Shown here piece after piece: positions 13,201-36,846 of a stretch of 46,302 bases of DNA. Source of the stretch: Reclinomonas americana ATCC 50394 (Eukaryota). How positions within the stretch are numbered: the stretch's first letter is position 1; the number at the start of each line of letters is the position of its first letter. The position numbers were made by a program, and so were the translations under genes. Location: assembly GCA_048213135.1 (NCBI GenBank), contig PS015360.1:176848-223149 (forward strand). Direction: 5' to 3'. The notes beneath the pieces were generated by a model. The model saw only the letters and a program-made list of their open reading frames with translations, searched no databases and was not told the DNA's origin.

Positions 13201-16200
13201 ACCACAATTGTTACTTGCAGAGTTTCGCAGCATGGTGCAGCCCGTGATTGTCTGCGTGGGGAGCGCAAGTGAGCTTTTTTGATTGCGTGTTAGACAGAAG
13301 GATCCCCCAACTCGCACCTGACTGCCAGTTCCGTGAAAGATTGCTGCCAATCCTCCGCCACCCGAGTTTCCACCGTTGTTCGCCGCCAAACTTTGAGCAG
13401 AGGCAGAGACTCCAGAGGCAACACCTGTGCGGAGCTGGCGCATAAGGGCATCGACCGCATAGAGTGAAACGGAAGATTCCTCACCGCCGTTTCCATTGTT
13501 GACAAAGAGGTTGTCCGTAAAAGTACAATTCGTGAGAGTCTGCCACGCATCATGAGCACGCAAGCAAAGAAAGCGCACAGCGTGTTCTCTCATTCAGGAA
13601 ACGTACTTGAACATTGTTATTATAAAAGTAGGTGAAGAGACCACCGCCACCGAGATTGCTGCTGGAGCTGTCGGCATTGGCGATTCCGGCGGCAGATGCA
13701 GACCCTGAGCGTTAGTGTTTGCAAGCAATTGAGACTTCTCGTACACAGGACAGACTTGAGCCGCGCAGAGAGCACGAACCCGCATTGCCAGTGCCCGAGA
13801 CCACATTGCTGGAGAAGACTGTGTTGTCGAGCGACTGCGCAGGCACAGATAATGTGAGCGAGCCTCGAAAAGAGAGAGAGAGAGAGACTCGAAATCTCGT
13901 GCCTGGCTGCCGGCATTCTTGAAAAACACCCACATGCCAGCACCGCCAATAAACGACCCACTGCTCCTGGCAGACGATGTCGAGTCAATATTCATGTCAC
14001 CTGTTGCCGTGGCCGTCCCTGCGAGGTTCGTCAGGACACTAGACGACAATGCGGGTGCGACACGTGTCGTCCCCTACCTCCGTTTCCGCACGACGTTACA
14101 GCGTTGCTGGCAAATGTGCAGTTGCTGACCACCTGTTACGCGCACAGTTGGTGGGCCACTGCTGCTGCCTCGCGTGTAGAACACCACTCACCTGTTGCCC
14201 AGTGTTGCCAATGAATGCCAGTGAAACGCCGCCGCCACCATGGTAGCCGCCACTGGAAATCGCCAAAGTGTGCGTGCCGCCGAGTGCCGAGCCTAAAGGT
14301 GGTGGGCGTTATGTCAGGTGAGGAAGACAGTGGTAATCAGCAGCATGATGGGAGTACTGACCTGCATTTCCGGAGCTGTCGACCGTATTGTTGAAGAAGC
14401 GACACGATGACAGCGTCTGCAGGATGGCAAGCATGTGAGGGGCATAGAGGCGAGAGAGCGAGAAGACCAGCGCACGGTACAGTACCTGCGAGCCATTGCC
14501 ACCAATATTTACAAACACCGCGCCTCCACCGTTGGTGCCTCCGGAGCTGGAGGCAGACACCTGACTGCCGGTGCCTGCACACACAAACAAGACACAGGGA
14601 GGGTGATTACTGACGATCATTTCTGCTGCTCATCCGAACTTGTCGACGTCGCAGTGTACAAACCCCCGTTGCCACTGAGCGACACACGATTGCTGATGAA
14701 CGCAGAATTACTCAACACCTGCACGCACAATGAGCGGGGCATTAGAGCTGTGGAGAAAGAGGCAGGAGGATCGATACAAAGTGCACCTGCGCAGCATTGG
14801 CATTGGAAACCAGCATAATCGCACCACCACCGCAATTGCCGCCCACACTGTTGGCCGTTCCAGTGGCACTCGCTGCGACGACGAGTGAGAAGAAGGCACA
14901 CCGTGCGCGGAGACAGCAGACACCACGGACGTACATCTTCCTGCGTTGCAATTGTTGAACGCCTGATTGCCGGTGAATGTGCCATTGACGACACTCTGCA
15001 CCGCCGCCATGACAGTTGGACGCGCGCCAAAAACGTAACAAGCAAGTAAGCACACACCTGGCTCCCGTTGCCGTTACTCAGCGTCAGAATAGCGCCACCA
15101 CCACTGAACTGCGACTGGCTGTCGGAGGCGATGACCGTGGTGCTCGTCGACGCATCACCTGCATTTCCCCCGGGAAGACGTATTACTTCCCACAGTCTTC
15201 TTTGTGCGAGCTCAGAGAACACGTACCACCGTTGGAATTGCTGTAAGCTGCGTTGCCAGTGAATGTTGTACTCGTCACATTCTGCCACTGCGCAGCACGA
15301 CACGGAGGTTGAGCGACATCCCGCATATATAAATACAAACACATATATACCTGAGCAAGCTGAGTGAGAGCGCTGGGAAAGAATGCAAGCACGGCACCGC
15401 CACCGGCACCTCCCGCTGTGGACATACACGACGCGCCGTTGCTGTTGCCACCACGACCATTGGACAAGGCCATGTTGCCGGTAAAGTCGCTGCTGATAAT
15501 CTGCGAGGTGGTGAGGGACAATGACGAAGACGACAAGCACAAGCCTCACGGACCTCGTGCAACAGTGACGTGACGAGCGGAGCGGAGGCGAATGAGAGCC
15601 ACAGAGCGCCACCGCCAGAGGCACTAATCGGCACCGGGAGCGCCAACTGCAGACCGACACTGGTCCCGCTTTGCGTGTTGCCGCTGCCCCCGCCAGCATT
15701 GTTGCTCGCCACATTGCCCACAAACTCGCATCCCGTCACCTGCAAGTACGATTTGCAGTCAACGAATCGTGCAACGCGCTGCTACCAGTGGCCGCACACA
15801 GACACACCTTCAAGTTGACGACGCCGCCCACCCACACTCCACCTCCTCCGCATTGCGTACCAGAGTTCCCCGAGCCCTGCACGTTGCTGCCACCTCCGCA
15901 GCAGCTGTCCACACGATTTTGCGACACGGTAGTTTGTGAAATCTGCGAATCAACGACACATGAGCAGAAAGAGAAGCAGACGGAGAGGGTGATCAAACTC
16001 AACAGTCACAGTCGGTGAGGAAAGCGCGGCTGCCATGTGAATCCACACCGCACCACCTCCACTCTGCTGTCCACCGCTGGCCTGCGTGCCGGTGATGCTG
16101 CATGGACCAGGCAGTACAGGACACTGCACGCCGTTGCTGCTCGACAACAGCGCGTTACTGTCAAACGTGGAGCCTTGCAGGGAGACGGTGCTGGCCTGTT

Positions 16201-17494
16201 GGACGCACAGAGCGCCTCCACCGACCCCGTTACTCCCGTTGGGCGACTGCGAATCACCATTGCCACAGCCGCTGACAGTGTTGGAACTCCACAGGCTGCC
16301 GACATCCGACACGCTGACCGACAGCGCATCCGTCACATACACGGCGCCGCCACCGTTGGAGGGACCAAACAGATTGCCGGCCGAGTTCCCCTGGAAGGTA
16401 CAGTTGGTGGCCGAGAACACAACACCGCCACCACCGCCCTGCACAAACACAGCGCCACCCCCCGCCCCGCCAGTGGCACCAGCGGCCGACGCCGCCGTCG
16501 GCCCGTGCACCGCATTGTCTACAAATGTGCAGTTGCGCATGGTCACCGACGCTCCTCCAAGCAGGCCAGCTCCCACACTCAACGCAGCACCAGATGCACC
16601 AGCGCTCTGCTTGATGCAGTCCGCAAACGTCGACGACTCCACCGACACCGTGCCAAAATGGCCGCTCACTGACACCGCCGACGAGGCGAGGCCGGCGGCC
16701 GATCCTCGGTGGTGCGCAAAGTTGCATCCGCTGATGGTGAGTGAGGCCGTGCCCGCCAGCGCTGTGGCGTCGAGCGCCACTGCACCGCCGAGAGAGCTGG
16801 AGAAGGTGGCATCGACGATGCTCACTTGTGCCACGGAGCCGGGAGTGGGCACCGCCGACGTCCACGACACAACTGGCGACGCCGCCGAACCGCCGACCAC
16901 AACAAGCCGATTGATAGTGAATGCAGACGAATCGTGCACCGACACGAAAGCGGAGGTGGAGGCCGGCGAGACTTGCAGCACGGCGGCGGTGGCCAGCGGC
17001 GGTGGCGTTGTCAGCGTCACATTGTGACCTGAGAACGAGAGTGAGAGCGTGTTCTCACACACACACACACACATGCATTGATGAATCGAGACAAGACGAC
17101 TGCACCGGTGATGGAGAGCGAGGTGGTGCTCGCCAGCGTGTAGGTGCCCTCGGCAAAGAGCACCTCCAGTGCCCAGTCGAGCTGCACGAGATTGTAGTGG
17201 CGATCTGTGCACGATGCAATAATGACCGATGCGTCACACGGCGATGCGGCGCTGGAGCCGCATGGTGTGGTAGTGGAGCCGGTAGGTGACACATAGACTG
17301 GAGTGGGGGGACTGACGAGTGAGGGGTTGCGTGACACTTGCAAATAAAGAGTGACACACACCTTGGCAGAGAGGAGAGGGCGATGCCGCAAAGACGCTCA
17401 GAGGTATGCACAGAGACAGAGAGAGGAGAAGGAAAAGAAGGATGAGAGGAGGAATGTGGAGCGGTGGGCGTAATCGTGGTGGTGATGTTGTCAT
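1215..17494 (-). CDS. Giant multi-exon surface protein: signal peptide, PMP/pectin-lyase-like beta-helix repeats, Cys-rich linker, multi-pass (about 7 TM) domain, His-rich tail
   Basis: MTTSPPRLRPPLHIPPLILLFLLLSLSLCIPLSVFA signal peptide, then VYVSPTGS..PCGS..SPC. Dozens of FxxNxA and GGG[AG]-hydrophobic motifs. CPGGT..CQACPNGQY..CQPCPPNMVC linker. TM region includes YGHLYHHFRP..WYQ..RR and AYHTTVDNVLE. Stop at 1215-1217. Exons I checked join in frame; internal boundaries are approximate. Confidence 0.85.
12955..13100. repeat. Intronic (GGGA)n / GA-rich simple repeat
   Basis: Directly visible inside an enlarged intron of the giant gene. Confidence 0.8.
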
Positions 17495-18643: not shown

Positions 18644-21574
18644 ATGAACGGAGTGGCCAGGCACGCCGACGATTTCGACCGCCGCTCGCGAGTCTCAGTC
18701 AGCAACAATGAGAATCCACCGTATCCGGGCAACACGTTGCGTTTGTCGCCCTCGATGTTCTCGGCAAACGCAACATCGCTCACTGCCGATCTACACACAG
18801 ACTAAACGATCGCTTCACGACGGGCGGATTGGACGATGGCTACGACCGCCGACCAGCCACTGCCGACCGCGGTATGAACACGATGCCCGATCGTGATGCC
18901 GAAGAGCGCCAACCAGGTACGCAGAGGAGAAAACCTCGTCGGGTTTACAACGTACATGCATGATGAATCAGCGCTACTCGACACGCAGGCAGGGAAATAA
19001 GCAAGCTGGTGCGAGCCGACGATGTCCGTCGCGGTTCCGACTCGCCGTACGACAAGATGGGCGACTTCCGTCGGCCCAACATCCCCATCCTGTCGTATCA
19101 AGTTCAGTGATGTGTGTGTGTGCCACCAGTCGCTTTTTCCCCAGTGCTCACACCACTCTGCACGCGCACAGACCGAATATGCATCACAGTACCAGCCGTA
19201 TGCGCCACAACGGACGCATCGGGCCACTCGCTGAAGCAAAAGCTCCTGTCACAAATAAACGAAACGAAGTCAGTGTCCTAGTCCCATCGCAGCGATTCAT
19301 CTCCGTCATCGCCGAGCGCACGATGAAGGCGCTAGTCACCCTTTACCAGTCCATATGTCAGCGAGAGAGAATAAGGGTGCGTGTGTATGTGTGTGCGTGA
19401 GGTGACTCTCTGTGAGAGAACTCACAGTAGTGATCGCACAGCCGATCCGGCGAGTGGAGGCAGTGCTGGAAATGTACGATGGCGCACACCAGGCAGTGCT
19501 CGACTGCGACGATGAAGACGTCCAGGATGCCGTTGCGTGCACTTCCCTCACACAGTCGACGCCATCAGCAGTGATCACTCATTGTGTGTCGTTCAGGGGG
19601 CGATTGCACTGATCGAGGTTCTCACTGTGCAACGCCTTCGCGTGGAGCAACTCTCGCTGGCGCACAATCGACTCACCGATCGCACGGCGGCGATGCTGTC
19701 GAGTTATCTGGTGGCCAACGATCCTGTGCTGGTGCGACTGTCGCTGCGGCAGAACGAGATTGGGGTGGAGGGCGTGTCCAAGTTGGCGCGGGCCCTGCCC
19801 AAGATCACACGCCTGCGCGTACTCCATCTCGACAACAATCGTTTCGGCGCCGATGGCGCTGTGACGTTGGCGGTGGGGCTGGAGCGAAATCGCTCACTGC
19901 AGACTGTGACACTGCGCTCCAATGTCATGGGCGATCTCGGCATGCTGGCGTTTGTGGCTGTGATTGAGAACAATCGCACACTGACAGAGCTTGACCTGTC
20001 GTACAACGCGGCGTCGGATGACGAGACCGTTTCGTCCATGGCCAAGGTGCGTCGATGACGTAAAGTGGTGGGCATGCATTGACGCCAGTTGTTGATCTGG
20101 TATATGGTACACAGGCACTATCGGGCAATCACGTCATGTGTCGCCTGTTGCTGGCTGGCAATCGCTTCGGCCCGACGGTCTTGGATCCACTCACGCGGCA
20201 GCTGCGTCGCAACGAGGAACTGGCCATGTTCCAGCGCCAGGAGTCGATTGCCGAGCGACCGCATCGAGGAGTGGGGCGTGCGCCAGGCGGCAGCGGCGGC
20301 AGCGGCGCTGGTCCCTCCAGAACAACCCCTTCATCTGCAGCCGCACGGAGCAATGGCAGAGGAGAGTTTGCGGAGGAATCTGCGGTCGACCTCAACCCGG
20401 CGTCACAGGGTGCTGGTGGCACCTTGGTCCGCAACGGCCGGGTGTTCGTTGTCAGCGGTCCGCAGGATGCGCAGGCGCTCGGCAGTGATCAGGGCACCTC
20501 TGCCATGCTCGACGATGCGAGCGAGATCTCCACAGAAGCTGGGTCGTCACCCCGTGCTGCCGGCAGTGGTGCTGTTCTTGACAATGGCACCGTAGTCCTC
20601 AATCGGTATCGCGTAACCGGTCTCAGCGATGCTCACCGCGAGGAGGAGAGTGGCGGTCAGACGGTGCACCATGTTGACTATTTTGGCATCGATCTGGACA
20701 CCGACGAGCGAGTAGTCATCCAAGTGTGCACCGATGCCAAGTATCTGGCTCGGTGCGTCGCAGGTCGTGATACCGATCGACGTGTCGTTGCTTGCTGATC
20801 TCCCACTATTGTACTCGCAGACTCATGCAATACTCTGAGGTTCTGTCGCCTGCTGGTGCCTTGCCGCCTCTCCTACAAGGTGGTAAGCATACAGGCGTAT
20901 TCGTGGCCATCAATCCTCGCCCATTCGACACACTGGAGGAGTACATCAATCGGGTCAACTGCGTCGATGATCCGCTGGCATCAGTGACAGACGATCTGAT
21001 TGGCATTGTGCGCACGCTGACGCAGCTGAAGTTGGTGTGCATCGATCTCACTCCTCTGTGCTTTCGGCGATATGCCGAGAGGTATTCTCTGTCGGGCATT
21101 GACAAACTGCGCAAGGTAAGAGGCAGTAGGCGTGGCTTCAATTCACATGGTTTCATCTGCTGATTTGTTCCTGTTCCCCTTCTGCTCCAAGCTTGAGCAT
21201 GCGCGTGATGTTCCACTTCACTCATTTACCGTTTACACCGCGCCTGAGCACCTGGTGCAAGTGGCCAGCAATCCGCTCACCAGACTTGTCACCTTCACAA
21301 CCGAGTCAATCCTGTGGTCGCTCGGCATCGTCGTGTTGCACATGCACGTACCCGACATATTCCAGCAGTACCGTTCGTTGCAGACGTTCCTGGAGAGTCT
21401 CATCACCGGTACGTAGGCCTGCGACAGCCGCAGTGGCTGCCACCAGCGAGCTCACCGAAGTGCACAGATGACTTCCGACCCGATCTCGATCACCTCGTGG
21501 AGGACTTGCGAGTTCGTGATTTTCTCCGCGCTGTTTTGCAGCATCGGCCCGTCGACAGAACCCTACGGTGGTGA
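18644..21574 (+). CDS. Ribonuclease-inhibitor-type LRR protein with a C-terminal pseudokinase domain
   Basis: 28-aa LRRs (LSLAHNRLTD, LSLRQNEIGVEG, LHLDNNRFGADG, LDLSYN). Kinase-like exons: VLNRYRV..YFGIDLDTDERVVIQ, TLEEYI, LVCIDLTP, LSGID, YTAPE, ILWSLGIVV, RPVDR. The start is uncertain because a gap lies just upstream. Confidence 0.8.
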
Positions 21575-21660
21575 TACATTGCCGCTGCAAACGGCGACGT
21601 ATAAAAAATTTGTAACAAGTCACCAACACGTTACATCATTTTTTGCCATTTTCGAACGCA

Positions 21661-23662
21661 ATGGAACGCAAAGCGGTAACAGCAGCCATCAGTGTGCTGA
21701 CCGTGTGCGGCAAGTTGCGACGCAGTGCCCTCTCGCGGCTCCACTACACAGCATCACACGCACGTCTTTTTTCACAGCTGTGTGATAGTTGTCTCTCTCA
21801 CACATACGGAATAACTCACACGTGCACACACACACACACATTCACATCCACAGGTTCGCTGCCGAGTTCAGTCGCGACGCGACGGTGGCTGATGTGATAC
21901 GCATAGCGCGCGATGGTGTGTGTGTGTGTGTGTGTGTGCTTTCACGAGATGATGCATTGTGATGATGATGATGTTAATGATGATGTTGATGACGATGTTG
22001 GGTGGCAGTGTTCGAGACGCTCTCGGCTTGTGTGGCCATGGTCAATGGCGACAAGGCCAAGGACTCGACCAAGCTGAAGAAGCTGTTCAACAGTTACGCC
22101 TCACCACGCGTGTGCCTTGTGTGGGTATTTTTGACAACGAAGCTAACTGCATGCATGCATCTTGAATGGGTGTTTTTGTTCTCCTTCTTCGTTGCCTCTG
22201 TCTCTGCCGCCTCCCCCTCCTCTGTCTCGTGATGTCCTGTTTTATTNNNNNNNNNNNNNNNNNNNNNNNNNNNNNNNNNNNNNNNNNNNNNNNNNNNNNN
22301 NNNNNNNNNNNNNNNNNNNNNNNNNNNNNNNNNNNNNNNNNNNNNNNNNNNNNNNNNNNNNNNNNNNNNNNNNNNNNNNNNNNNNNNNNNNNNNNNNNNN
22401 NNNNNNNNNNNNNNNNNNNNNNNNNNNNNNNNNNNNNNNNNNNNNNNNNNNNNNNNNNNNNNNNNNNNNNNNNNNNNNNNNNNNNNNNNNNNNNNNNNNN
22501 NNNNNNNNNNNNNNNNNNNNNNNNNNNNNNNNNNNNNNNNNNNNNNNNNNNNNNNNNNNNNNNNNNNNNNNNNNNNNNNNNNNNNNNNNNNNNNNNNNNN
22601 NNNNNNNNNNNNNNNNNNNNNNNNNNNNNNNNNNNNNNNNNNNNNNNNNNNNNNNNNNNNNNNNNNNNNNNNNNNNNNNNNNNNNNNNNNNNNNNNNNNN
22701 NNNNNNNNNNNNNNNNNNNNNNNNNNNNNNNNNNNNNNNNNNNNNNNNNNNNNNNNNNNNNNNNNNNNNNNNNNNNNNNNNNNNNNNNNNNNNNNNNNNN
22801 NNNNNNNNNNNNNNNNNNNNNNNNNNNNNNNNNNNNNNNNNNNNNNNNNNNNNNNNNNNNNNNNNNNNNNNNNNNNNNNNNNNNNNNNNNNNNNNNNNNN
22901 NNNNNNNNNNNNNNNNNNNNNNNNNNNNNNNNNNNNNGTCCTGTTTTATTGCATCGCGTTGCTGATGTGTCGCGCAGTGGAGAGTGACGGACGAAAAGAG
23001 ATGTTCCTGCTTCCGCTGTGTGATGCAGAGTTCCGCATGCATTACCGCCACACCGTGGTTGGTGACGCAGCTGGTGCTGTGGGTGGTGGGCCGTCGTCGT
23101 CTGCGGCGACGTCGGGCGTGCAGTCGACCGACGTGGTTGCCGGAGGTGAGGCGTGTGCTCGCTCTGTGTGCCTTTGTTAACCGTGCTCCCTCGTGACACT
23201 CTTCCGCTCGTGCTGTTCCCTCCTCTGGCAGGCGCTGCTGCTGGGGGCAGTGGTAGTGGAAGTGGTGGTGACGCCGGCCCGTCGGTGCCGCCAGTTGAGT
23301 GTGACGATTTTGTTGTGGTGCTGGATGTTTGTTTCTGGTCTCAATATGAAACTCGATGCATTGCATGCGAGCAGCAGGTGAGCGTGGAGGCGCTGAGCGA
23401 GAGCGAGAGTGCGGAGTTGCTGGCGATGGGGCGTGAGCGTATGCCGGGCATTCTCGAGCAGGGCGAGTGGTTGGCTGGTGCATGCGCCTATGCAGATGTT
23501 GGCGCAGACTCATCAGTGTGCATGTTACGTGTGCACAGAGAAATCCGTTGCTGGCGACGTGGCGAATGTGCCCGAGTCGCGACTGTCGGCCAAGCTGATG
23601 GAGGAACTGGAGGAGATTGATGTGATGGATCCGTCTGAGACCGGTGAGGCTGGCATCCGAGC

Positions 23663-23704
<42 letters not shown>

Positions 23705-24790
23705 GACAACGAAGGAGTGCATGCATGTGTTTGTGCTTTGGGAGATTTGCAGTGCTCGGCTCACTCACATTCACCCACGCAGGCGTGTATGGCACGGTGC
23801 CGCAGATGGCGTCGCAGGCGGTGCGAGTGGTGCGGCTGTCTCCATCGGGACCGACATCGCGCTACGAGGTGCAACTGGTGGCGCAGTTCTCGCAGCCGAT
23901 GGTGGGTGTGCACGATTGATGTGGGTTGGAGACTGGAAGACGAGGNNNNNNNNNNNNNNNNNNNNNNNNNNNNNNNNNNNNNNNNNNNNNNNNNNNNNNN
24001 NNNNNNNNNNNNNNNNNNNNNNNNNNNNNNNNNNNNNNNNNNNNNNNNNNNNNNNNNNNNNNNNNNNNNNNNNNNNNNNNNNNNNNNNNNNNNNNNNNNN
24101 NNNNNNNNNNNNNNNNNNNNNNNNNNNNNNNNNNNNNNNNNNNNNNNNNNNNNNNNNNNNNNNNNNNNNNNNNNNNNNNNNNNNNNNNNNNNNNNNNNNN
24201 NNNNNNNNNNNNNNNNNNNNNNNNNNNNNNNNNNNNNNNNNNNNNNNNNNNNNNNNNNNNNNNNNNNNNNNNNNNNNNNNNNNNNNNNNNNNNNNNNNNN
24301 NNNNNNNNNNNNNNNNNNNNNNNNNNNNNNNNNNNNNNNNNNNNNNNNNNNNNNNNNNNNNNNNNNNNNNNNNNNNNNNNNNNNNNNNNNNNNNNNNNNN
24401 NNNNNNNNNNNNNNNNNNNNNNNNNNNNNNNNNNNNNNNNNNNNNNNNNNNNNNNNNNNNNNNNNNNNNNNNNNNNNNNNNNNNNNNNNNNNNNNNNNNN
24501 NNNNNNNNNNNNNNNNNNNNNNNNNNNNNNNNNNNNNNNNNNNNNNNNNNNNNNNNNNNNNNNNNNNNNNNNNNNNNNNNNNNNNNNNNNNNNNNNNNNN
24601 NNNNNNNNNNNNNNNNNNNNNNNNNNNNNNNNNNNNNNNNNNNNNNNNNNNNNNNNNNNNNNNNNNNNNNNAAGCGGCCGTGGAGAGAAGCGCGAGGAGA
24701 AGTACACGGTGCCGCTGAGCTTCAGTGGTCAGGATCTGCTGGACTACATCAGCCAGCAGAGTGGTGTCGATGTGCGCCAGGTGCGTCTGC

Positions 24791-24830
<40 letters not shown>

Positions 24831-27800
24831 TTGTTGCTGTTTTCGTTGTGGAGTGTTTCAGCAGCAGACTGACTGACGAGTGTGGATAGGGATACGACGT
24901 GCGATGCGGTGGAGGCGTGCTGCATCGACAGTTCCGACTGGGCCACTACGATCTGTCGCGCGGCTATCGCGTGCAGATGACGCTGGTGCGACACCAGTCG
25001 TACTGCGGCATGTGCTGGGTGCAGGCGAACACTGCCAACTTTGCGGCGACATCCGACGGACGGCGACTGGTTGTGGCGATGTGCGATCGAGAGGGGCGTG
25101 CGATGGGTGGCGCGACGGCGCACATGGTTGCGGGATCTGAGCTGCTGGAGCAGGTACTGCAGACGAACGAGCGCGGTGAGTCGGGCGTGGGAGATGGTTG
25201 TCGGATAGGAGGTCGAGGAGTGTCAGTGTTGACGAGCGATGTGTTGTGTAGGAGTGATTGACGTGCAGACCGACGATTCGTTCCGATGCGACTTCCTGGT
25301 GTGGCGACACGAGGCGAACTGGGGTGTGCTGCCTGTGTACTATGACAAGTTCCGTGAGTATCATGGAGCGCATCAACTGTATCGCGAGAAACAGCGGTTG
25401 CTCGGAGTGGCCAACAGTGATCGGTGAGTAGGCAGAGTGAGGATGGGAAGAGAATGTTGTTTTGCTGAATTGCTGGATGTGATCGCAGGTCGCTGTACAA
25501 GGCCGGTGAGGTTGTGACTGTGCATGGCCAGCTGCGAGTGGAAGACAAGGACGGACATTTGGTGTTTCCCAATCGCGAGTACTTTTCTGGTGCTCTGAAG
25601 AAGGCATCTGCGCCATTCCAGCCACGATTCATGCACAGGCTTCCATGGCAGCCCGTGGAACCAGCTGTTGTCGACATGGATGGTGTGCTGCATGATCGCG
25701 ATTGTTATCAGCGTGTCTCCGCGGTCTCATCCTGTACATGTACGATCTGCAGAGGCTATTGGCGGAGAAGCACCGTCGGTGGCTGCGACATTCTCGTATG
25801 AGAATCACCAGACGGACCACCGGATGACGATTGACGAGACTGGGTGGTCGTTTGATCTGCAGTTCACGCTGCCTGAGAGTGTGCGTGTGTGAATGTTATG
25901 ATAGTGTGGTGATGATGATTTCAGCGCTCACTCTGTGTGCTCTTGCTGTCGACCGAAAAAAGTGGGACGAGTCGCAAGGCGAGTCTGCGCGGATCGAGTT
26001 CAAGGTGAATCACTCGCGTCGGTGTGTGCTGGTGCTCGAGGGAGTGTCGATCACTGTCAAGGCGTTCCGCAAGCCCGGTTCGTGATGCGATGGCGGAGGA
26101 AGTAGATGGTGCGACTGACCGCACTGACTGTGCGTGTGACAGACTTTACGGTGACACCGACCATTGAGAAGCGCGACATGTATGTCAGCGGCGACGAGGT
26201 GCCGTCGGTGACTGTGTCCAAGTACCAGACAGGTGAGAGAGTTAGAAAGAGAGAGAGAGAGAGTGAGAGGGAGAGAGATGTGTTCGTATTCGTAGCACGC
26301 TTGCTCGTTCCATGGTTGTTATATGGGGTGGTAAAGACTAAAATACGATGCTGCAGACGACCCGGTGGTGGGCCAGCTTGTGACGTACCGGAAGACGCTG
26401 TCGTGCGCACAGGCATCGCCACTGAACAGCAGCAAAGTGTCGGCTGAGGCTCGTGAGCAACTGAGAGAGTACTTGTTCACCACGCCGTACGTGACGGTGG
26501 CGGAGCCTGCGATTCCTGTCACCGAGGCGACATCGGATCGAGCGGGAGAGTCGCGGCACACGTTTGTGGTGGACCACGTGAACTATCCGGTTCCGGTGCA
26601 AGTGCAACTGCAGGTGTGTGACGAGGGGAGGAGGGACGACGAGGAGTGAACGCAGTATCTCTCACCTGAGTGTGTCGTGATGGCAGGCGTCGCTGACGGA
26701 CTCGAGTGCGCAAACCTGGTGAGTGTGCACACAAGAGAGAGTGATTGGAGGAGGAGGAGGGTGCTCATATGTTTGGAGATCNNNNNNNNNNNNNNNNNNN
26801 NNNNNNNNNNNNNNNNNNNNNNNNNNNNNNNNNNNNNNNNNNNNNNNNNNNNNNNNNNNNNNNNNNNNNNNNNNNNNNNNNNNNNNNNNNNNNNNNNNNN
26901 NNNNNNNNNNNNNNNNNNNNNNNNNNNNNNNNNNNNNNNNNNNNNNNNNNNNNNNNNNNNNNNNNNNNNNNNNNNNNNNNNNNNNNNNNNNNNNNNNNNN
27001 NNNNNNNNNNNNNNNNNNNNNNNNNNNNNNNNNNNNNNNNNNNNNNNNNNNNNNNNNNNNNNNNNNNNNNNNNNNNNNNNNNNNNNNNNNNNNNNNNNNN
27101 NNNNNNNNNNNNNNNNNNNNNNNNNNNNNNNNNNNNNNNNNNNNNNNNNNNNNNNNNNNNNNNNNNNNNNNNNNNNNNNNNNNNNNNNNNNNNNNNNNNN
27201 NNNNNNNNNNNNNNNNNNNNNNNNNNNNNNNNNNNNNNNNNNNNNNNNNNNNNNNNNNNNNNNNNNNNNNNNNNNNNNNNNNNNNNNNNNNNNNNNNNNN
27301 NNNNNNNNNNNNNNNNNNNNNNNNNNNNNNNNNNNNNNNNNNNNNNNNNNNNNNNNNNNNNNNNNNNNNNNNNNNNNNNNNNNNNNNNNNNNNNNNNNNN
27401 NNNNNNNNNNNNNNNNNNNNNNNNNNNNNNNNNNNNNNNNNNNNNNNNNNNNNNNNNNNNNNNNNNNNNNNNNNNNNNNNNNNNNNNNNNNNNNNNNNNN
27501 NNNNNNNNNNNNNNNNNNNNNNNNNNNNNNNNNNNNNNNNNNNNNNNNNNNNNNNNNNNNNNNNNNNNNNNNNNNNNNNNNNNNNNNNGCGCTTTGTGAA
27601 GCCGGGAGTGGATCATTTCCTTGGATTTACGCTGACTGTGGAACACGTTGCGTTTGTTCGTGTGCATTCTATTGCATCTTCTCTTGCGCACACGCTGTGC
27701 TTGCACAGGAGGGCACGGTGCACTCGATTGAGATGAGGCTCAGCGAGTCGGTGCAATCGCTTGTTGCGACGGTTAAGGTGGAGAGCGTGTGCACCAGTGT

Positions 27801-30800
27801 TGACGTTGCAGAGTGCTCACTCAGTTGTTGGTGGATGATCGATGGTTCTGCAGGAGCTCGTGCCACACATGACCGGGTTGAGAACGGTACGAGGTCTGCG
27901 GCTGACCGACGATGAGGGGAAACTGCACCTGAGTCTTGGTGATGCTGGGGTGTTCTACGGAGATTGCATGATCATCGAAACGCCAATGCCGGCTGAAGGT
28001 GATTCAGGCCTGCTGTCTCTCTGATTGTCATGTTCGCTGACAGCTGTCAAAAGCTGCAAGGCAGCAAGTGGAAAGGCTTCAGGACGTCGTGAAGTCATCG
28101 ATCAGTAGTGTACTCCTGCGGGGAGAAACGTTGGACTCCCTGATGCCGAAGTCCGAAACGCTGAGCGCTTCAGCTGCCCGCTTCGGCGCGAAACCCAGAA
28201 GCGTGTTTTTAGATGACTCACGAGGTGGTGGTGGAATGATGGATCTACAACAGCAAGAGCAACAGGAAGCTAAGCCGCAAGAGGTTGTGGTGGTGGTGAG
28301 TAACAACTCTCCAGCAGTCAGCTCTTGAGCCGATTGATGCTCATCACAGATATTTTGATTGCAGCGCAACAATTTCTCGCCTATTGCAGCCTTCATCCCG
28401 CGCGCGACCACCGACGAGACTGGCCACGTGACTGTCCGCTTCGAGACGCCGGACTCGCTGACCAAGTTTCGTGTCCTCCTTGACGTGCACCACTTTGATT
28501 CATTTGTGCAGCAGTGCCAGAGGTGCTCACTGTGGTGCGGCGTAGGTACCGCATCTTCGTGTTTGCCAACAACGAGACCATGTTCAGTGGCGCAGCTGAG
28601 CTGCTGTTGACTGTGCGCATGGACTTTTCGATGCGGTGTGTGTGTGCTGCTGATGACTGCACTGTGTGTGTTAGTACTGGGTTGCACTCATATGTGCCTG
28701 GTGGGTATTGTAGGTTGACGATTCCACGCTTCCTGCACGTGGGCGACGAGTTCTCCGCGCAAATCACTCTGCTAAACTTCACCGACAAGGATTTGCGCAC
28801 ATCGCTGCTTGCACACTCGCCAGATGTGGTGATTCGGCAGCCCGCGCACTCCGTTTTCATTCCGGCGCGCGATCGGTAAGTGACGGGAGTTGTGCTTGTG
28901 TGGGTGGGTGAGTGGATCTCACTCTGTTTTATATTGTCGTGTCGGATGGCAGGTGCGATCTGAGTCTGGAGTGCACGGTGGAGGACGAAGTGATGGAGGC
29001 CAAGTTCAGTGCGGCTGCGTTTGCGCAGACGGTGGAGGAGGAGTCGCGCGAGTTGACGGATGCAGTGTATCTCGAGTTGCCGGTGTATGTACCGGTGGTG
29101 CCTGAGGAGGTGACGGCAGCTGGTGTGTTGGAGGGCGGTCAGCAGATTATTGCGCAGCGGATTCGTCGCAGCGACATTATGGTGCCAACGTACGGGTATC
29201 TGCGAGTGATGGCGTCGCGCGATCCCGGCATCCAGGTGTCGGGCATGGCGGAGGCGATGTACCGGTGTGTGTGTACATGTGTGTGCGCATGTGTGTAAGA
29301 GGATGACAGCTGACTTTTAGTGTGGTGGTGCAGGTACTTCTTGGATTGCACCGAGCAGCTGTCGTCAATGGTGCTGTGCTTGTCGTCGTGCTACGACTAT
29401 CCGGACTTGATCCCGCGGGTTTGTTTTTTGTTTTTGCGTGAGAACGTGAGCGATGGAAATTGTTGGCGCAGCTGACATTGGAGATGTGGTGGGAGTAGGT
29501 GTCAGCCGACCAGATTCTGAAGAAGGTGACGACGGCGCTGGTGTCGTTGAAGGGTCGGATTGTGAAGAAGCCGATCACCGGCTTCAACTCGTGGTGTGGG
29601 GTGCGTGTGTGTTTGTGCGCGAGTTGCAAGTCGGCAGCCTTTCTCACGTGTGTTGTTGCGCAGAACCATGTGGATCCGTTCTGCACCGTGTCGGCATATC
29701 AGGCACTTGTGTGTGCGGAGCGACGACTGCCGGCTGGGAGCCGTGCGGCGCAGCTGTGTCGCAGCATGCTGGCGGAAGTGGAGCCGTCGATGAGTGCATT
29801 CTTCAACACGGATCTGTCGTATGTGGAAGAGCACAACTCGTCACTGCGCGAGAATGCACATGCGCAGCTGTTCTTGGCGGCAGCGATTGGTGAGTGAAAG
29901 AGAGAGAGAGAGAGAGAGAGAGAGANNNNNNNNNNNNNNNNNNNNNNNNNNNNNNNNNNNNNNNNNNNNNNNNNNNNNNNNNNNNNNNNNNNNNNNNNNN
30001 NNNNNNNNNNNNNNNNNNNNNNNNNNNNNNNNNNNNNNNNNNNNNNNNNNNNNNNNNNNNNNNNNNNNNNNNNNNNNNNNNNNNNNNNNNNNNNNNNNNN
30101 NNNNNNNNNNNNNNNNNNNNNNNNNNNNNNNNNNNNNNNNNNNNNNNNNNNNNNNNNNNNNNNNNNNNNNNNNNNNNNNNNNNNNNNNNNNNNNNNNNNN
30201 NNNNNNNNNNNNNNNNNNNNNNNNNNNNNNNNNNNNNNNNNNNNNNNNNNNNNNNNNNNNNNNNNNNNNNNNNNNNNNNNNNNNNNNNNNNNNNNNNNNN
30301 NNNNNNNNNNNNNNNNNNNNNNNNNNNNNNNNNNNNNNNNNNNNNNNNNNNNNNNNNNNNNNNNNNNNNNNNNNNNNNCCTTGCGCAGGTACTCTCCAGC
30401 CTCGTCACGCTGCTTGCGATCCGCCTCGTCATCCGCCACTGTGTGTGTGTGTACAAGCACGGATGTGTGTGCGAGTGGCCTGCATGCATGCTCACTCGCT
30501 CGCTCACAGGCACATCAATCATCCCTCACCAGCCTCCATTTGAATGCGTCGGTCGAACACCGGAATCAGCAGCGCACAGCTCTCCACATCCAACGACGTG
30601 AAGTCCTCGATCTCCCACAGGCCCTTCATGATCGGAAGGACGAACGCTGCACAACACCAGCACCAGTCATCAGCCAGCAACACACGGACAGCTGAGGAAG
30701 TCACAAACACACAGCGGCGATCACGCACAACAAACGGCTCGGGTCGTTGCTCCGCTGCCATCACGCTGCGATGCAAGCACACCTGCACTCGTCACGCCGA

Positions 30801-33173
30801 AACCATTGAGCCACCCACTTGACAACACACCACACAGACACACACACTCTCCTNNNNNNNNNNNNNNNNNNNNCGCTCGACTTGATCAACAACTGGTGAG
30901 AGAGAAAGAGACAGAGAGGGAGAAGAGTCGCACTGTTGGTGATGGACTGTTGTGACCTGACGAGGTGCGTGGTGGAATGGAATAACAGCGTGGAAGACGA
31001 CGGCACGCATGCTCGACTGACGAGCTCGTTCTCGCGGATGTGGTCGGAGTACATTTTCGTCAACAGCAACCTGCGTGCGACGGCGTTGTTCTGTCGATCA
31101 CTGCTGGACTGTGGCATGGTGAGCGAGTGAATGGATGGATGTACGGACGGGAGTGAGTATGCACTGATGTAATGGATGCAGATGGACGATGATCGAGTGT
31201 TGATCGAGCCACTGAACGGACTGCGACTGTTGGTGCACCGACTGGTGCGTGGCATTGCGAAGGCACGCATTGCGACGCGAGTTGGATACTTTGGGACCAC
31301 TGTCGTTGCGTTTTCACATATCTTCTGTATGTCTCTCTCTCTCTCCCTTGCTCGTTCGCTCTCGCTCACTTGTGACCGCCGCTGTTGTCGTCGATGCGAA
31401 TGGTGATGTATCACTGAGCAGGAGAATGCTGTGGTGACGAATCTGCTGTGTCGGTACTACGAGCGCATGACGTCGGACCCTGAGGCGTCGCAAGTGCAAC
31501 TGTTCTACAAGGACATGTTGGTGCGCGAGCTGGAGGTGAAGCCGAAAGGTGCGTGGTTGTGTGGGAGGTGATGAACAAGGCGAGAACGAGAGAGAGAGAG
31601 AGAGAGAGAGNNNNNNNNNNNNNNNNNNNNNNNNNNNNNNNNNNNNNNNNNNNNNNNNNNNNNNNNNNNNNNNNNNNNNNNNNNNNNNNNNNNNNNNNNN
31701 NNNNNNNNNNNNNNNNNNNNNNNNNNNNNNNNNNNNNNNNNNNNNNNNNNNNNNNNNNNNNNNNNNNNNNNNNNNNNNNNNNNNNNNNNNNNNNNNNNNN
31801 NNNNNNNNNNNNNNNNNNNNNNNNNNNNNNNNNNNNNNNNNNNNNNNNNNNNNNNNNNNNNNNNNNNNNNNNNNNNNNNNNNNNNNNNNNNNNNNNNNNN
31901 NNNNNNNNNNNNNNNNNNNNNNNNNNNNNNNNNNNNNNNNNNNNNNNNNNNNNNNNNNNNNNNNNNNNNNNNNNNNNNNNNNNNNNNNNNNNNNNNNNNN
32001 NNNNNNNNNNNNNNNNNNNNNNNNNNNNNNNNNNNNNNNNNNNNNNNNNNNNNNNNNNNNNNNNNNNNNNNNNNNNNNNNNNNNNNNNNNNNNNNNNNNN
32101 NNNNNNNNNNNNNNNNNNNNNNNNNNNNNNNNNNNNNNNNNNNNNNNNNNNNNNNNNNNNNNNNNNNNNNNNNNNNNNNNNNNNNNNNNNNNNNNNNNNN
32201 NNNNNNNNNNNNNNNNNNNNNNNNNNNNNNNNNNNNNNNNNNNNNNNNNNNNNNNNNNNNNNNNNNNNNNNNNNNNNNNNNNNNNNNNNNNNNNNNNNNN
32301 NNNNNNNNNNNNNNNNNNNNNNNNNNNNNNNNNNNNNNNNNNNNNNNNNNNNNNNNNNNNNNNNNNNNNNNNNNNNNNNNNNNNNNNNNNNNNNNNNNNN
32401 NNNNNNNNNNNNGGGCTCACGCAACTCGTCTGCCTCGTACACCGCATGCAGCGACCGGTGCACCTCAAAGTTGCGGAACACAGCCTCCGCGAACTGCGGC
32501 TGCCGAGCGCATCGGAACGACACCTGCGCATATCACACGCACAACACTCACTATTCAGACTCCCCGACACTCCCTCCCCTTTCACGACGACAAAGAAATC
32601 CACACCTCGTAGAAGCATGGCGGTCCACCAGCCTTGTACACCACACAGTTCTGCGGAGCCGTGTCCACCTTGCGCATCGGCAGCATCATGTTGCTCATCT
32701 CTGCCGCTCATCAACACACACACACACACACTCCGGTCAGCTCTCTCTCTNNNNNNNNNNNNNNNNNNNNTGGGGTGGGGGAGGGGGAAAGTTAGTAAGC
32801 GATGCTGATGGATGAATGGTGCACCAGGAATTGTGGTCAGGCGATCACATGCTGCAGTATGTGGTGCGCGCCACGAGTCGCGGTCGATTCACGATGCCGG
32901 GTGCCAAGATTGAAGAGGTGAGGAGGGAAAGGANNNNNNNNNNNNNNNNNNNNGGGAGGGAGGGGAGGGAGGGAGGGAAGAGAGTGTGGGAAGGAAGGAA
33001 GGCAGACAGGAAGAATCGGTGTCGGTTGTGCATTTTGTCCTGTTGATTGACTAGGCATGGCATGGTGTGTGTGTGTGCGTGTGTGTCTCTCTCTCTGTGT
33101 GTGTGAATCGCAGCTGTACAGCCCGGAGAACTACGGCATCAGCGAGCCGTGCTTCATCACCGTGGTCGAATGA
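21661..33173 (+). CDS. Bacterial-type alpha-2-macroglobulin (thioester protein) with Ubl and R-SNARE-like inserts; interrupted by assembly gaps
   Basis: Motifs in the expected order: VRLSPSG..AQFSQPM; SDRSLYKAGEVVTVHGQLR; VKAFRKPDFTV; VRNNFSPIAAFIPRATTDETGHVTVRFETPDSLTKYRIFVFA; LTIPRFLHVGD; YFLDCTEQLSS (29347-29358); GYFGTTVENA; YVVRATSRGRFTMPGAKIEELYSPENYGIS; TGA at 33171-33173. Linking 21661-22110 to the rest crosses a gap and is inferred. Confidence 0.85.
24791..24829. repeat. (GAT)n microsatellite, intronic
   Basis: Directly visible just after the donor at 24781. Confidence 0.9.
30379..30853 (-). other. Gap-flanked contig carrying probable A2M thioester-domain exons in reverse orientation
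   Basis: Minus strand shows GT-AG introns and exons FVLPIMKGLWEIEDFTSLDVESCALLIPVF.. and VADDEADRKQRDEAGEYLRK. Its reverse-complement start continues the (GA)n intron that ends at 29925. Confidence 0.65.
32413..32750 (-). other. Gap-flanked contig carrying A2M C-terminal-region exons in reverse orientation
   Basis: Minus strand encodes ..VVYKAGGPPCFYE|VSFRCARQPQFAEAVFRNFEVHRSL, matching the G.G.LYY....Y....G..V.R.Y pattern. Its reverse complement starts with (AG)n, continuing 31610. Confidence 0.7.
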
Positions 33174-34370: not shown

Positions 34371-36846
34371 CTACTTTGATGTGTGGTACGAATACGACCG
34401 CTGTCGGCGGAATTCGTCGAACTCGTCAGCCCGGAAACCAATGCCGCGAAAGTCGGAGCCCATGCTTGCAGTGAAACCACCTGAGCCATCCTGTGCGTCA
34501 TGCATCAGTTGCTGGGCGCGTTCAGCGACACTGTCGGCATTCCGCGACGAGCTGCTGTTGCGAGAGGACGACCCAGTGGAACTGGCGGTGGACCGACGTG
34601 GCTCACGATCTGTTGTTGTCGTTGTCGTCCGTCGCGTTGCCACATACACCGGCGTGTCCTCGTCTTCGCTGATGTACGGCGAGTCCTCATCGTCACTGCC
34701 TCCGTGTTCACCGGTTCCTTTCATAGGAGCGTCTCGCCCCGCTGCGCCCTTGTCGGTGCGAAGCGCGGCCTTCCGGTAAAAATGATCAAGTGCACGCTGC
34801 ACGCGTGACGGCAACACCGACGCCTTGGCGGGCAGTGTGGTCGGGATATCGGAGACGATGATTGGTGTGTACGGTGCGCCACGCTTGGAGAGCTCAGCCA
34901 GGACGCCGCCGGGAATATTGAGGGCGGTGATCTTGCTGGAGAAGCCAATGCTGGGACCGCTGGCAACATGAGCCTCTGGCGGTGTAAACAAGCTCTAATC
35001 GCACGAGAACAAGGTGGTTGGCCGAGTGCGACGACAGCTGAATGCTCCCTCTCATAACCCTTCGCTCGAGTACGCAACGGGTGGCGCTCCGGGTGGTGCA
35101 GGCAGCAGAGAGCCTCGTTCAAGCAGAGCTCGTTCTCGAGCCCGCTGCAACTCACGAATCTCCTTCTCCAGACGACGCTCAGCCTCGCGAGATCCGTCGT
35201 CAATCACACTCTCGAGTTCGTCAAGGACCGTGACAGGGAATACTTTCTTGTGCGACCACCGATCGATGAGCTGAACACGAACGATGAGCGGAACGGAGTG
35301 AAAGGAGTATGGTGTGCACGAGAAGCAGTAACTCAACTCGCTCTATCGATCGCTCGTCTCGCTCATCACGAGCACAAGCCTCCATGCTTCGTGGCAGTTC
35401 ACGGAGCATGGCCACAGCGAGCGGATCGTCGAGGAAGTTGTAAGTTGTGTTTCCAGATGCTTGCCTACAGACGCCAGCGTGCGTGAGTAGCACACCAGCA
35501 GGGGCGACAACGCTAGTATCTGCACAGCGCACCGAGACACCAGCAGCTCGTCAACGAGATTCAGCATGTGCAGGGCAGCACCGTGCTCCAACTCGTCCTC
35601 AGCATGCCGTCGAATGAGTTTGGCCACAGTCGCCGGCGGTATCTGCAGGTGCGATTGGATCCACGCAGCCGTGCTCTGCAGCGCGCCGAGTCAGCCGCCA
35701 ATCTTTTGCACGAACACGCAGTCGACGGGGAGCGGAACGCACCGAGATTTCTTCATCGCCTTGAATGTGGCGAAGCATCTCTCTCAGCTGCTCCTGCTCG
35801 TCTGGTGGCTCTGCTCGCCAGTCCTCCTGCAACGCCAAGATGATCAGCAATTGTCTCATTGTGTGCAATAACTTGCACACAGGCAGCAAACACACACCTC
35901 GTGTGCGCCAATTGCGCCATCGGCGACTATGTGTGTTGCAGGCAGTGAGAAACGCAGGAGAGAAGCGTGTGATGCGCAGGCAACGTACCGTTTCCCAGGG
36001 TGAGCTGCTCGTGAATACGATGCAGGAGGTAGCGATAAAAGCCGTGAAACTCAGTTCCCGGAAAGAGGAATGCAAACTGCGGATTGCCATTGTGCTTCTC
36101 CCGCATGGACGCCTCGTACTGCGGACCACTGCGGACCACGTAGTTGGCAGTGCGCTCAATCAAGCCACGCAGCTCGACATCTGCACGCGCATAAGTCAGC
36201 GAGCATGCCAAGACAATGCAAACTCAGAGCGGCGATCACCGCACCAACAGGCGGCTGCGGTGTTGGAGGCAGCGGGGGAAGAGAAGGAGGAGGAGGAGGA
36301 GGAGGCGTAGCCATCATCATGTGCGACGGCGCATGAGCGTGGTGGTGATGCATCATTGGCAGTGGTGGTTGTGGCGGCATTGGAGGCGGTGGCAACACGC
36401 TGCCGCCCGGATGTTGATGTTGATGATAGTGATGTGGAGGCATAGGAGGAGCAGCAGGAGGTGGTGGAGGGTTGGGAGGTGGCGCACTGGCAGCATACTG
36501 TGCATGCATGTGCTGCGGGTGCATGTGTTGATAGTGATGGAAATGAGGTGGTGGTGGAGGTGGAGGTGGTGGTACGGCTTGCTGTTGCTGCTGATAGAAG
36601 GCTGCAGGCGGTGCAAGCAGCGATGGACCCGTCGGAGGCACCTGCATGCACATGAGTCAGAGTGTGTGTGTGTGAGAGAGAGAGAGAGTGAGAGTGGGAA
36701 CATGTGTCAACCTGCATGTAGCCGTGTGGTGGTGGTGGTGGTTGTGGTGGTGTCGGCGCTTGTGGTGCCTGTGGGTAGCCGTATGGCAGTGGTTGCGGCT
36801 GCGGAGGAGCACCACCGCCATACCCGTGAGGATACGGGTATGACAT
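34371..36846 (-). CDS. CHERP: CHERP-like splicing factor (Pro-rich N-terminus, SURP, CID-like region)
   Basis: SURP domain LIERTANYVVRSGPQYEASMREKHNGNPQFAFLF..HGFYRY. LNIPGGVLAEL..YTPI..DIP..ALDHFY segment. C-terminus FRGIG..DEFDEFRRQRSYSY resembles the CHERP end DPYENYRRNKSYSF. Confidence 0.8.

Follow-up and report, generated by a model that had tools for sequence, protein, structure and literature searches.

The question raised by this locus is whether an exon carrying an R-SNARE motif is a genuine part of a macroglobulin gene, and what its place in the encoded protein could mean. The window analyzed is a stretch of 46,302 nucleotides from Reclinomonas americana ATCC 50394 (assembly GCA_048213135.1, contig PS015360.1, positions 176,848 to 223,149 of the forward strand), and all positions given below are those of the window. 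A gene resembling the bacterial thioester alpha-2-macroglobulin ECAM of E. coli was recognized on its plus strand, and the first-pass annotation had proposed that an R-SNARE motif lies at the bait position of this gene as a decoy trap for SNARE-cleaving proteases. On balance, the sequence slightly favors the reading that exon 4 of this gene (28054–28295, plus strand; 242 nt, 81 aa) is a constitutive coding exon and is the bait of a bacterial-type macroglobulin, apparently made up of an R-SNARE motif that lacks a membrane anchor, followed by a disordered linker.

The peptide ARQQVERLQDVVKSSISSVLLRGETLDSLMPKSETLSASAARF is encoded at positions 28056–28184 on the plus strand. The first-pass annotation placed it at 28054–28184; the peptide is encoded there, while its coding frame begins at 28056 and 28054 is the start of the exon. 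Translation from 28054 shows stops because the first two exon bases complete a split Ala codon. The Pfam Synaptobrevin profile PF00957 matches the 95-aa open frame with 31.8 bits (E 1.3e-7), above its gathering score of 26.4, and the 43-aa motif alone retains 31.0 bits. The profile match on which the earlier proposal was made to depend is thus significant. A phmmer search against PDB sequences returned 19 matches at E ≤ 1, all 19 of which are R-SNAREs. The top match is VAMP4 (2nps_A, 28 bits, E 2.3e-5); next come VAMP8 (21 bits), Nyv1, Ykt6 (15 bits), VAMP2/3, and VAMP7. The best three named clusters in ESM-Atlas are all synaptobrevin (0.87–0.88), which the tool itself rates as a lead only. 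The R-SNARE pattern recognized in the first-pass annotation is therefore confirmed, while the specific likeness to Ykt6 is not, since both VAMP4 and VAMP8 outscore it.

The conserved residues of the motif were compared with VAMP4, with the layer numbering of the SNARE literature. Layers about −6 to +6 are covered by the motif. Across layers −5 to +6, nine of the 12 positions are identical and the other three are conservative, while 10 of the 30 other positions are identical. The zero-layer Arg is encoded by the codon CGG at 28119–28121 (plus strand), exactly where it had been located before, and lines up with the RGE arginine of VAMP4, VAMP8, and Nyv1. The full 16-layer set is not present: layers −5 to +6 are retained, Pro is found at layer +7, and a second Pro is observed between layers +2 and +3. 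The PF00957 match covers profile positions 6–53 of 89. Positions beyond 53 are unmatched, and thus the juxtamembrane and transmembrane parts are missing, as the earlier description of a motif without a transmembrane segment had it. A C-terminal transmembrane or lipid anchor is absent from exon 4, which runs into the polar low-complexity linker GAKPRSVFLDDSRGGGGMMDLQQQEQQEAKPQEVVVV (28185–28295, plus strand; 37 aa) and then into the A2M domain. By these profile and pairwise comparisons, the peptide is a true R-SNARE-type motif that lacks a membrane anchor, and it resembles R-SNAREs generally rather than Ykt6 specifically.

A K-S pair in the motif aligns with K87-S88 of VAMP4 and K173-S174 of Ykt6, with Pro at the P2 position. 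According to the available text of PMC5543303, these two sites are the cut site of one known SNARE protease. The single-sequence AlphaFold2 model of exon 4 predicts a helix at residues 2–22, with a predicted local distance difference test score (pLDDT) of ~90, and low confidence at about residues 31–80; pLDDT is <55 across most of residues 44–80, which correspond to the linker, and the mean pLDDT is 64. This predicted model is weakly consistent with an exposed, flexible segment.

The window, a draft scaffold interrupted by 12 runs of N, several of which are within the macroglobulin gene, has a G+C content of ~57% outside the gaps, and its short GT..AG introns mark it as eukaryotic. The exon model was built with GT..AG sites only, on the gap-free contig 27589–29925. 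It includes 11 exons, all on the plus strand, which encode 546 aa with no stop, separated by GT..AG introns of 41–80 nt. Macroglobulin exons flank exon 4 on both sides within this contig. Upstream, exon 1 (27590–27646) encodes MG/BRD-like beta strands in an open frame with the donor GTTGCG, its 5′ end lost to the gap 26782–27588. Exon 2 (27709–27786) is also MG/BRD-like, with the acceptor CAG and the donor GTGTGC in phase 0. Exon 3 (27854–27998) is the last macroglobulin-type exon ahead of the bait and ends in phase 1. Intron 3 (27999–28053; 55 nt, GTGATT..AAG) contains a CTGAC branch-like site 13 nt upstream of its acceptor, and the sole AG earlier than the acceptor is 3 nt from this branch-like site. 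Intron 4 (28296–28364; 69 nt, GTGAGT..CAG) is in phase 0 as predicted in the first-pass annotation, and the model is stop-free through the junction.

Exon 4, with its 242 nt, connects the phase 1 end of exon 3 to the phase 0 start of exon 5; its length and phases are exactly those required to join the two, and without exon 4 the frame breaks. Skipping of exon 4 yields a frameshift with three stops, the first at residue 140. Retention of intron 3 yields a stop at residue 102, and retention of intron 4 one at residue 185. When all GT/AG pairs were tried at the exon 3/4 junction, three pairs were stop-free, and the SNARE frame is kept in each of them. The exon 4 frame is open for 95 codons, and the other two frames contain stops. 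Exon 4 is considered likely to belong truly to the coding sequence.

Exons 5 to 7 encode the A2M domain. Pfam was scored on single exons or frames, and PF00207, whose cut-off is 21 bits, is split in two collinear halves: profile positions 3–33 in the exon 5 frame (16.1 bits) and 33–89 in the exon 6–7 frame (18.7 bits). The clean exons 5 and 7 score 14.5 and 15.4 bits; each is below the cut-off, and only their sum passes it. Exon 5 (28365–28470) encodes the start of the domain (profile positions 3–29, 14.5–16.1 bits); its 3′ boundary is ambiguous, and the following intron is 41 nt. Exon 6 (28512–28635) encodes the middle of the domain, and exon 7 (28714–28875) its end (profile positions 61–89) including the PRF motif. 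Residues 215–303 of the spliced model, which cover exons 6–7, match residues 996–1088 of E. coli ECAM by blastp (E 0.002), and the best identity is 26% over 101 columns. Exon 8 (28953–29264) is the segment linking the A2M domain and the thioester. Exon 9 (29334–29418) contains the thioester motif CTEQ at 29347–29358, in agreement with the first-pass annotation, 159 residues past PRF versus 156 in ECAM, where the motif is CLEQ. Exons 10–11 (29499–29600 and 29664–29889) encode the start of the thioester domain, and a gap follows. Most of this domain falls in the gaps 29926–30378 and 31611–32412, and Pfam has no match on the single exons 9–11. A PDB sequence search with the 40-aa exon 5 returned no match.

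At the exon 5/6 junction (28465–28530), "TKFRV" and "RRYRIF" in the next frame fit the same position of the A2M domain. The chosen intron is just 41 nt there; a short stretch may have been duplicated, or the assembly may contain an indel.

Outside this contig, the macroglobulin-like sequence continues in the same order as in ECAM. The C-terminal MG10 exon (32819–32917, plus strand; 33 aa) matches bMG10 PF17973 with 25.5 bits (cut-off 26.2, E 1.6e-5), and its 5′ boundary is not fixed. The last exon (33114–33173, plus strand) encodes LYSPENYGISEPCFITVVE and the stop, and together with the preceding EE it gives E-E-L-Y across the splice. The corresponding motif of ECAM is E-x-M-Y (available text of PMC4498604). 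Upstream, the start of an MG2-type domain (25487–25576, plus strand) is indicated by a weak tblastn match to ECAM 394–420 (E 0.53), collinear with PF01835 at ECAM 388–479, and a bMG5-like exon (26335–26649, plus strand) by a weak PF17972 match (E 0.072). Several further MG-like upstream exons were read by eye, and much of the N-terminal half falls in gaps. On these likenesses the gene is filed as a divergent bacterial-type thioester macroglobulin, similar to ECAM and SaA2M, with weak single-exon scores.

The position of exon 4 within this gene was compared with the layout of ECAM, in which Pfam places A2M_BRD at 759–905 and A2M at 976–1057. The bait of ECAM consists of the disordered segment R923–L942 plus R956, G958, and N963 (available text of PMC4498604), and thus falls between the two Pfam domains. 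In the gene described here, profile position 3 of PF00207 sits eight residues past the exon 4/5 junction, and the SNARE exon is ~300 residues ahead of the CTEQ thioester, so that exon 4 stands directly before PF00207 and the bait position assigned to it earlier is retained. Its 81 aa fill the interval that holds the ECAM bait (63 aa). This indicates that exon 4 is the bait itself, taken here as the whole bait region, and not an addition to a bait, so the term "insert" used in the first-pass annotation does not apply.

The bait was probably gained by exon shuffling from one of the R-SNARE genes of the organism itself. The SNARE-derived segment would be exposed and largely unfolded. A protease cut in this segment or in the linker would release the conformational lock on the thioester domain, and the CTEQ thioester would then be uncovered and bind the protease covalently, as in ECAM (available text of PMC4498604). 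The bait of human A2M is fully replaceable, and the inserted substrate sequence sets which protease triggers the trap, as far as described in the available text of PMC8267569. If the bait sequence likewise decides which proteases spring the trap here, a SNARE-like bait should, by analogy, favor proteases that accept R-SNARE sequences.

Several observations weigh against the reading of exon 4 as a macroglobulin bait. All macroglobulin Pfam matches on single exons are under their gathering scores, which is explained by the scoring of single exons instead of the spliced protein. Among the three Pfam families named in the first-pass annotation, PF00957 passes and PF00207 appears as the two halves below the cut-off, while PF07703, the BRD, has no match on exons 1–3. 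The N-terminus lies within gaps, with candidate first exons near the gaps 22247–22937 and 23946–24671. The acceptor of exon 4 is the atypical AAG, while the other nine acceptors are seven CAG and two TAG. The G+C content at third codon positions (GC3) of exon 4 is 0.57, which lies within the range of the other exons (0.53–0.90), though close to its lower limit. No orthologue or paralogue was found in any collection searched. The exon model rests on genomic sequence from one draft assembly with gaps inside the gene. Two contigs between gaps inside the gene, 30379–30853 and 32413–32750, are without macroglobulin coding on the plus strand. 

The two contigs 30379–30853 and 32413–32750 contain plausible minus-strand open frames, such as 30519–30791, with no Pfam match; these contigs could belong to a nested gene or be pieces of the scaffold that were interleaved here. 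Microsatellites of (GA)n or (CA)n are found at the gap edges (23660–23700, 26230–26280, 29895–29925, 31585–31610, and 32715–32750) and also in several introns, and the assembly probably breaks at those edges because of them. Near the candidate first exons, spliceable plus-strand frames at 22938–23660 precede the first bMG1-like exon (23782–23907, RYEVQLVAQFSQPMV). These frames are acidic and Gly/Ser-rich, with no Pfam match and no obvious signal peptide, and may extend the macroglobulin at its N-terminus.

Relatives of exon 4 were searched for in several collections. A phmmer search among 1.84 billion representative proteins gave three matches, none of which is a macroglobulin. Two of them are low-complexity Ig/BACON repeat proteins and were judged spurious. 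The third, P0004, is a protein of 254 aa with four tandem synaptobrevin motifs and no anchor (Pfam 133.6 bits in four stretches). In word-based searches, none of the 366 candidates scored among proteins of 141–2000 aa was a relative of the SNARE exon, and none of the 834 scored among proteins of 232–2000 aa was a relative of the thioester-domain frame 29499–29897, relatives above 2000 aa being outside the range of both searches. Among metagenome contigs, none of the 596 pattern matches for exon 4 and none of the 391 for exon 8 was confirmed. The window contains no paralogue of exon 4, the next tblastn matches having an E-value of at least 0.42, and the target-site-like repeats flanking exon 4 are only short ones of chance size. 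In the open literature, judged by title and abstract, none of the papers listed links a SNARE or synaptobrevin to the bait of a macroglobulin; this coverage excludes supplementary files and most journals behind a subscription.

Repeat-rich frames (GGALW..., NNGNGG...) line the minus strand over a long stretch, 3645–17000. One gap-free frame of 882 aa (3645–6290) has 510 relatives at E ≤ 0.001, with Chlamydia-PMP (PF02415) and beta-helix (PF13229) repeats. Among the best 120 of the 510, which are bacterial and algal, most are 24–32% identical, the top identity is 38% over 12–18% of the query, and no self match is present. The proteome of the organism thus seems to be absent from the database, and the missing twin of exon 4 is therefore expected and says little.

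Other explanations of the SNARE exon were weighed against its reading as the bait. Exon 4 could be an artefact outside the macroglobulin mRNA, arising from a chimeric contig, as a pseudo-exon, or as a decayed fragment of an R-SNARE gene in an intron. The many gaps and apparently interleaved small contigs of the draft assembly are compatible with this, as are the AAG acceptor, the low GC3, and the lack of an identical or related protein among the 1.84 billion representatives. This explanation is nevertheless unlikely, given the gap-free contig with macroglobulin exons on either side, the length and phases that bridge exon 3 to exon 5, the frame that breaks when exon 4 is left out, and the single open frame; the database twin, as stated above, is not to be expected. 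Another explanation accepts exon 4 as the bait and adds a function: the protein would be a leaderless cytosolic macroglobulin whose SNARE-like bait is kept by selection as a mimic of the organism's own R-SNAREs, and proteases with which microbes attack R-SNAREs, in order to block the fusion of vesicles or phagosomes, would cut the mimic and be captured covalently. The R-SNARE signature is indeed far better kept at the layers than elsewhere, but such a bias is shown by any R-SNARE paralogue, so the pattern says nothing on selection after capture, and a test of constraint lacks an orthologue in both the representative proteins and the metagenome contigs. The K-S pair stands at the site homologous to the VAMP4 and Ykt6 cut sites of one SNARE protease (available text of PMC5543303), and trap specificity is set by the bait sequence (available text of PMC8267569), although real substrates differ from the motif at P2 of this pair and at layer +7, where it has Pro. 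The N-terminus, where a leader would be read, is in gaps. SNAREs are cytosolic, whereas all characterized macroglobulins, to our knowledge, act outside the cytosol. A selected cytosolic decoy is thus rated as rather unlikely.

Two further explanations assign the motif a role apart from being cut as a bait. It could dock the macroglobulin on Q-SNAREs in the manner of tomosyn, or self-associate, with cleavage being irrelevant. The intact layers −5 to +6 and zero-layer Arg, the helix predicted with high pLDDT at residues 2–22, and the existence of tomosyn and other large soluble proteins whose R-SNARE motif has no anchor are consistent with a binding helix, and P0004 with its four tandem anchor-less motifs is a further case. 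Against it, the motif is at the bait position and not terminal, the two Pro residues between layers +2 and +3 and at layer +7 should hinder full zippering, and layers +7 and +8 with the juxtamembrane part are missing. We consider this improbable. Alternatively, a helical module might be excised on activation, like the anaphylatoxin of C3/C4/C5, and then act alone. The 81 aa of exon 4 are about the size of an anaphylatoxin domain and would occupy the same position. A released module is nonetheless very hard to credit: exon 4 has neither a cysteine framework nor a fold of its own, the AlphaFold2 model predicts one helix and coil, no flanking processing sites are evident, and the gene is of bacterial type, not C3 type.

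The reading of exon 4 as a SNARE-derived bait is supported in silico as a real and unusual architecture, which was found described nowhere in the literature covered and which is known from a single draft assembly. As a rule, the baits of macroglobulins are fast-evolving loops of anonymous sequence. If one of them were recognizably taken from a different protein family, this would show that such traps are retargeted in nature through borrowed substrate sequence, a change that protein engineers have only recently made in baits, according to the available text of PMC8267569. Should the protein prove to act in the cytosol and to be selective for proteases that cut SNAREs, it would stand both as the first thioester trap at work within a eukaryotic cell and as a protist equivalent of the decoy domains in plant immune receptors, and it would point to SNARE-cleaving effectors as an old microbial weapon against phagotrophic cells. 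If the SNARE motif is merely a convenient disordered segment, it would still show clearly that an exon was shuffled into a bacterial-type gene.

Genes on either side of the macroglobulin were also recognized. On the plus strand, 19516–21600 contains a leucine-rich-repeat frame of the RNI type (LRR_6, E 3e-18) and, after it, frames read as kinase-like; no Pfam match was obtained for 20771–21160. This region appears to be the gene that precedes the macroglobulin. On the minus strand, 34374–36159 contains a SWAP-type splicing-factor gene, with a weak SWAP1_C match (25.3 bits) and a SURP-like motif seen by eye.

ECAM (YfhM) and SaA2M are type I bacterial thioester alpha-2-macroglobulins, and the gene described here shares their collinear arrangement: putative MG domains, a putative bait directly ahead of PF00207, CxEQ ~156–159 aa past PRF, and a probable bMG10 end with E-x-[ML]-Y. 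It differs in being eukaryotic, with many introns of 41–80 nt, and in being very divergent (26% identity over 101 columns); a lipoprotein signal and the PBP1C partner were not seen. Their bait is an anonymous disordered loop, while the putative bait here is a recognizable R-SNARE motif with a linker. With the R-SNAREs (VAMP4, VAMP8, Nyv1, Ykt6, and VAMP2) it has in common a PF00957 score above the cut-off, Arg at the zero layer, hydrophobic layers −5 to +6, and the signature RGE.LD.L..KSE.L. Unlike in these proteins, neither a transmembrane segment nor a lipid anchors the motif, a longin or N-terminal region is missing, and the motif is internal to a macroglobulin with prolines within it and at its end.

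Tomosyn and amisyn are soluble proteins that bind Q-SNAREs and have an anchor-less R-SNARE motif at the C-terminus. The protein described here resembles them as a large soluble protein whose R-SNARE motif lacks a membrane anchor. It does not belong to the tomosyn-like class, because its motif is internal, between MG-type and A2M-domain exons, while theirs is C-terminal on a WD40 protein. In complement C3/C4/C5, the anaphylatoxin domain is at the bait-equivalent position, which is a precedent for a foreign module at this position of a macroglobulin; the module is a different one and not SNARE-derived, and the lineage and the presumed consequence also differ. The engineered human A2M with a "tabula rasa" bait (Harwood et al. 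2021; available text of PMC8267569) resembles the arrangement proposed here in having an exchangeable bait, whose substrate sequence decides which protease is trapped. Those proteins are laboratory constructs of the tetrameric vertebrate A2M, while the gene from R. americana is natural and bacterial-type, with a putative bait.

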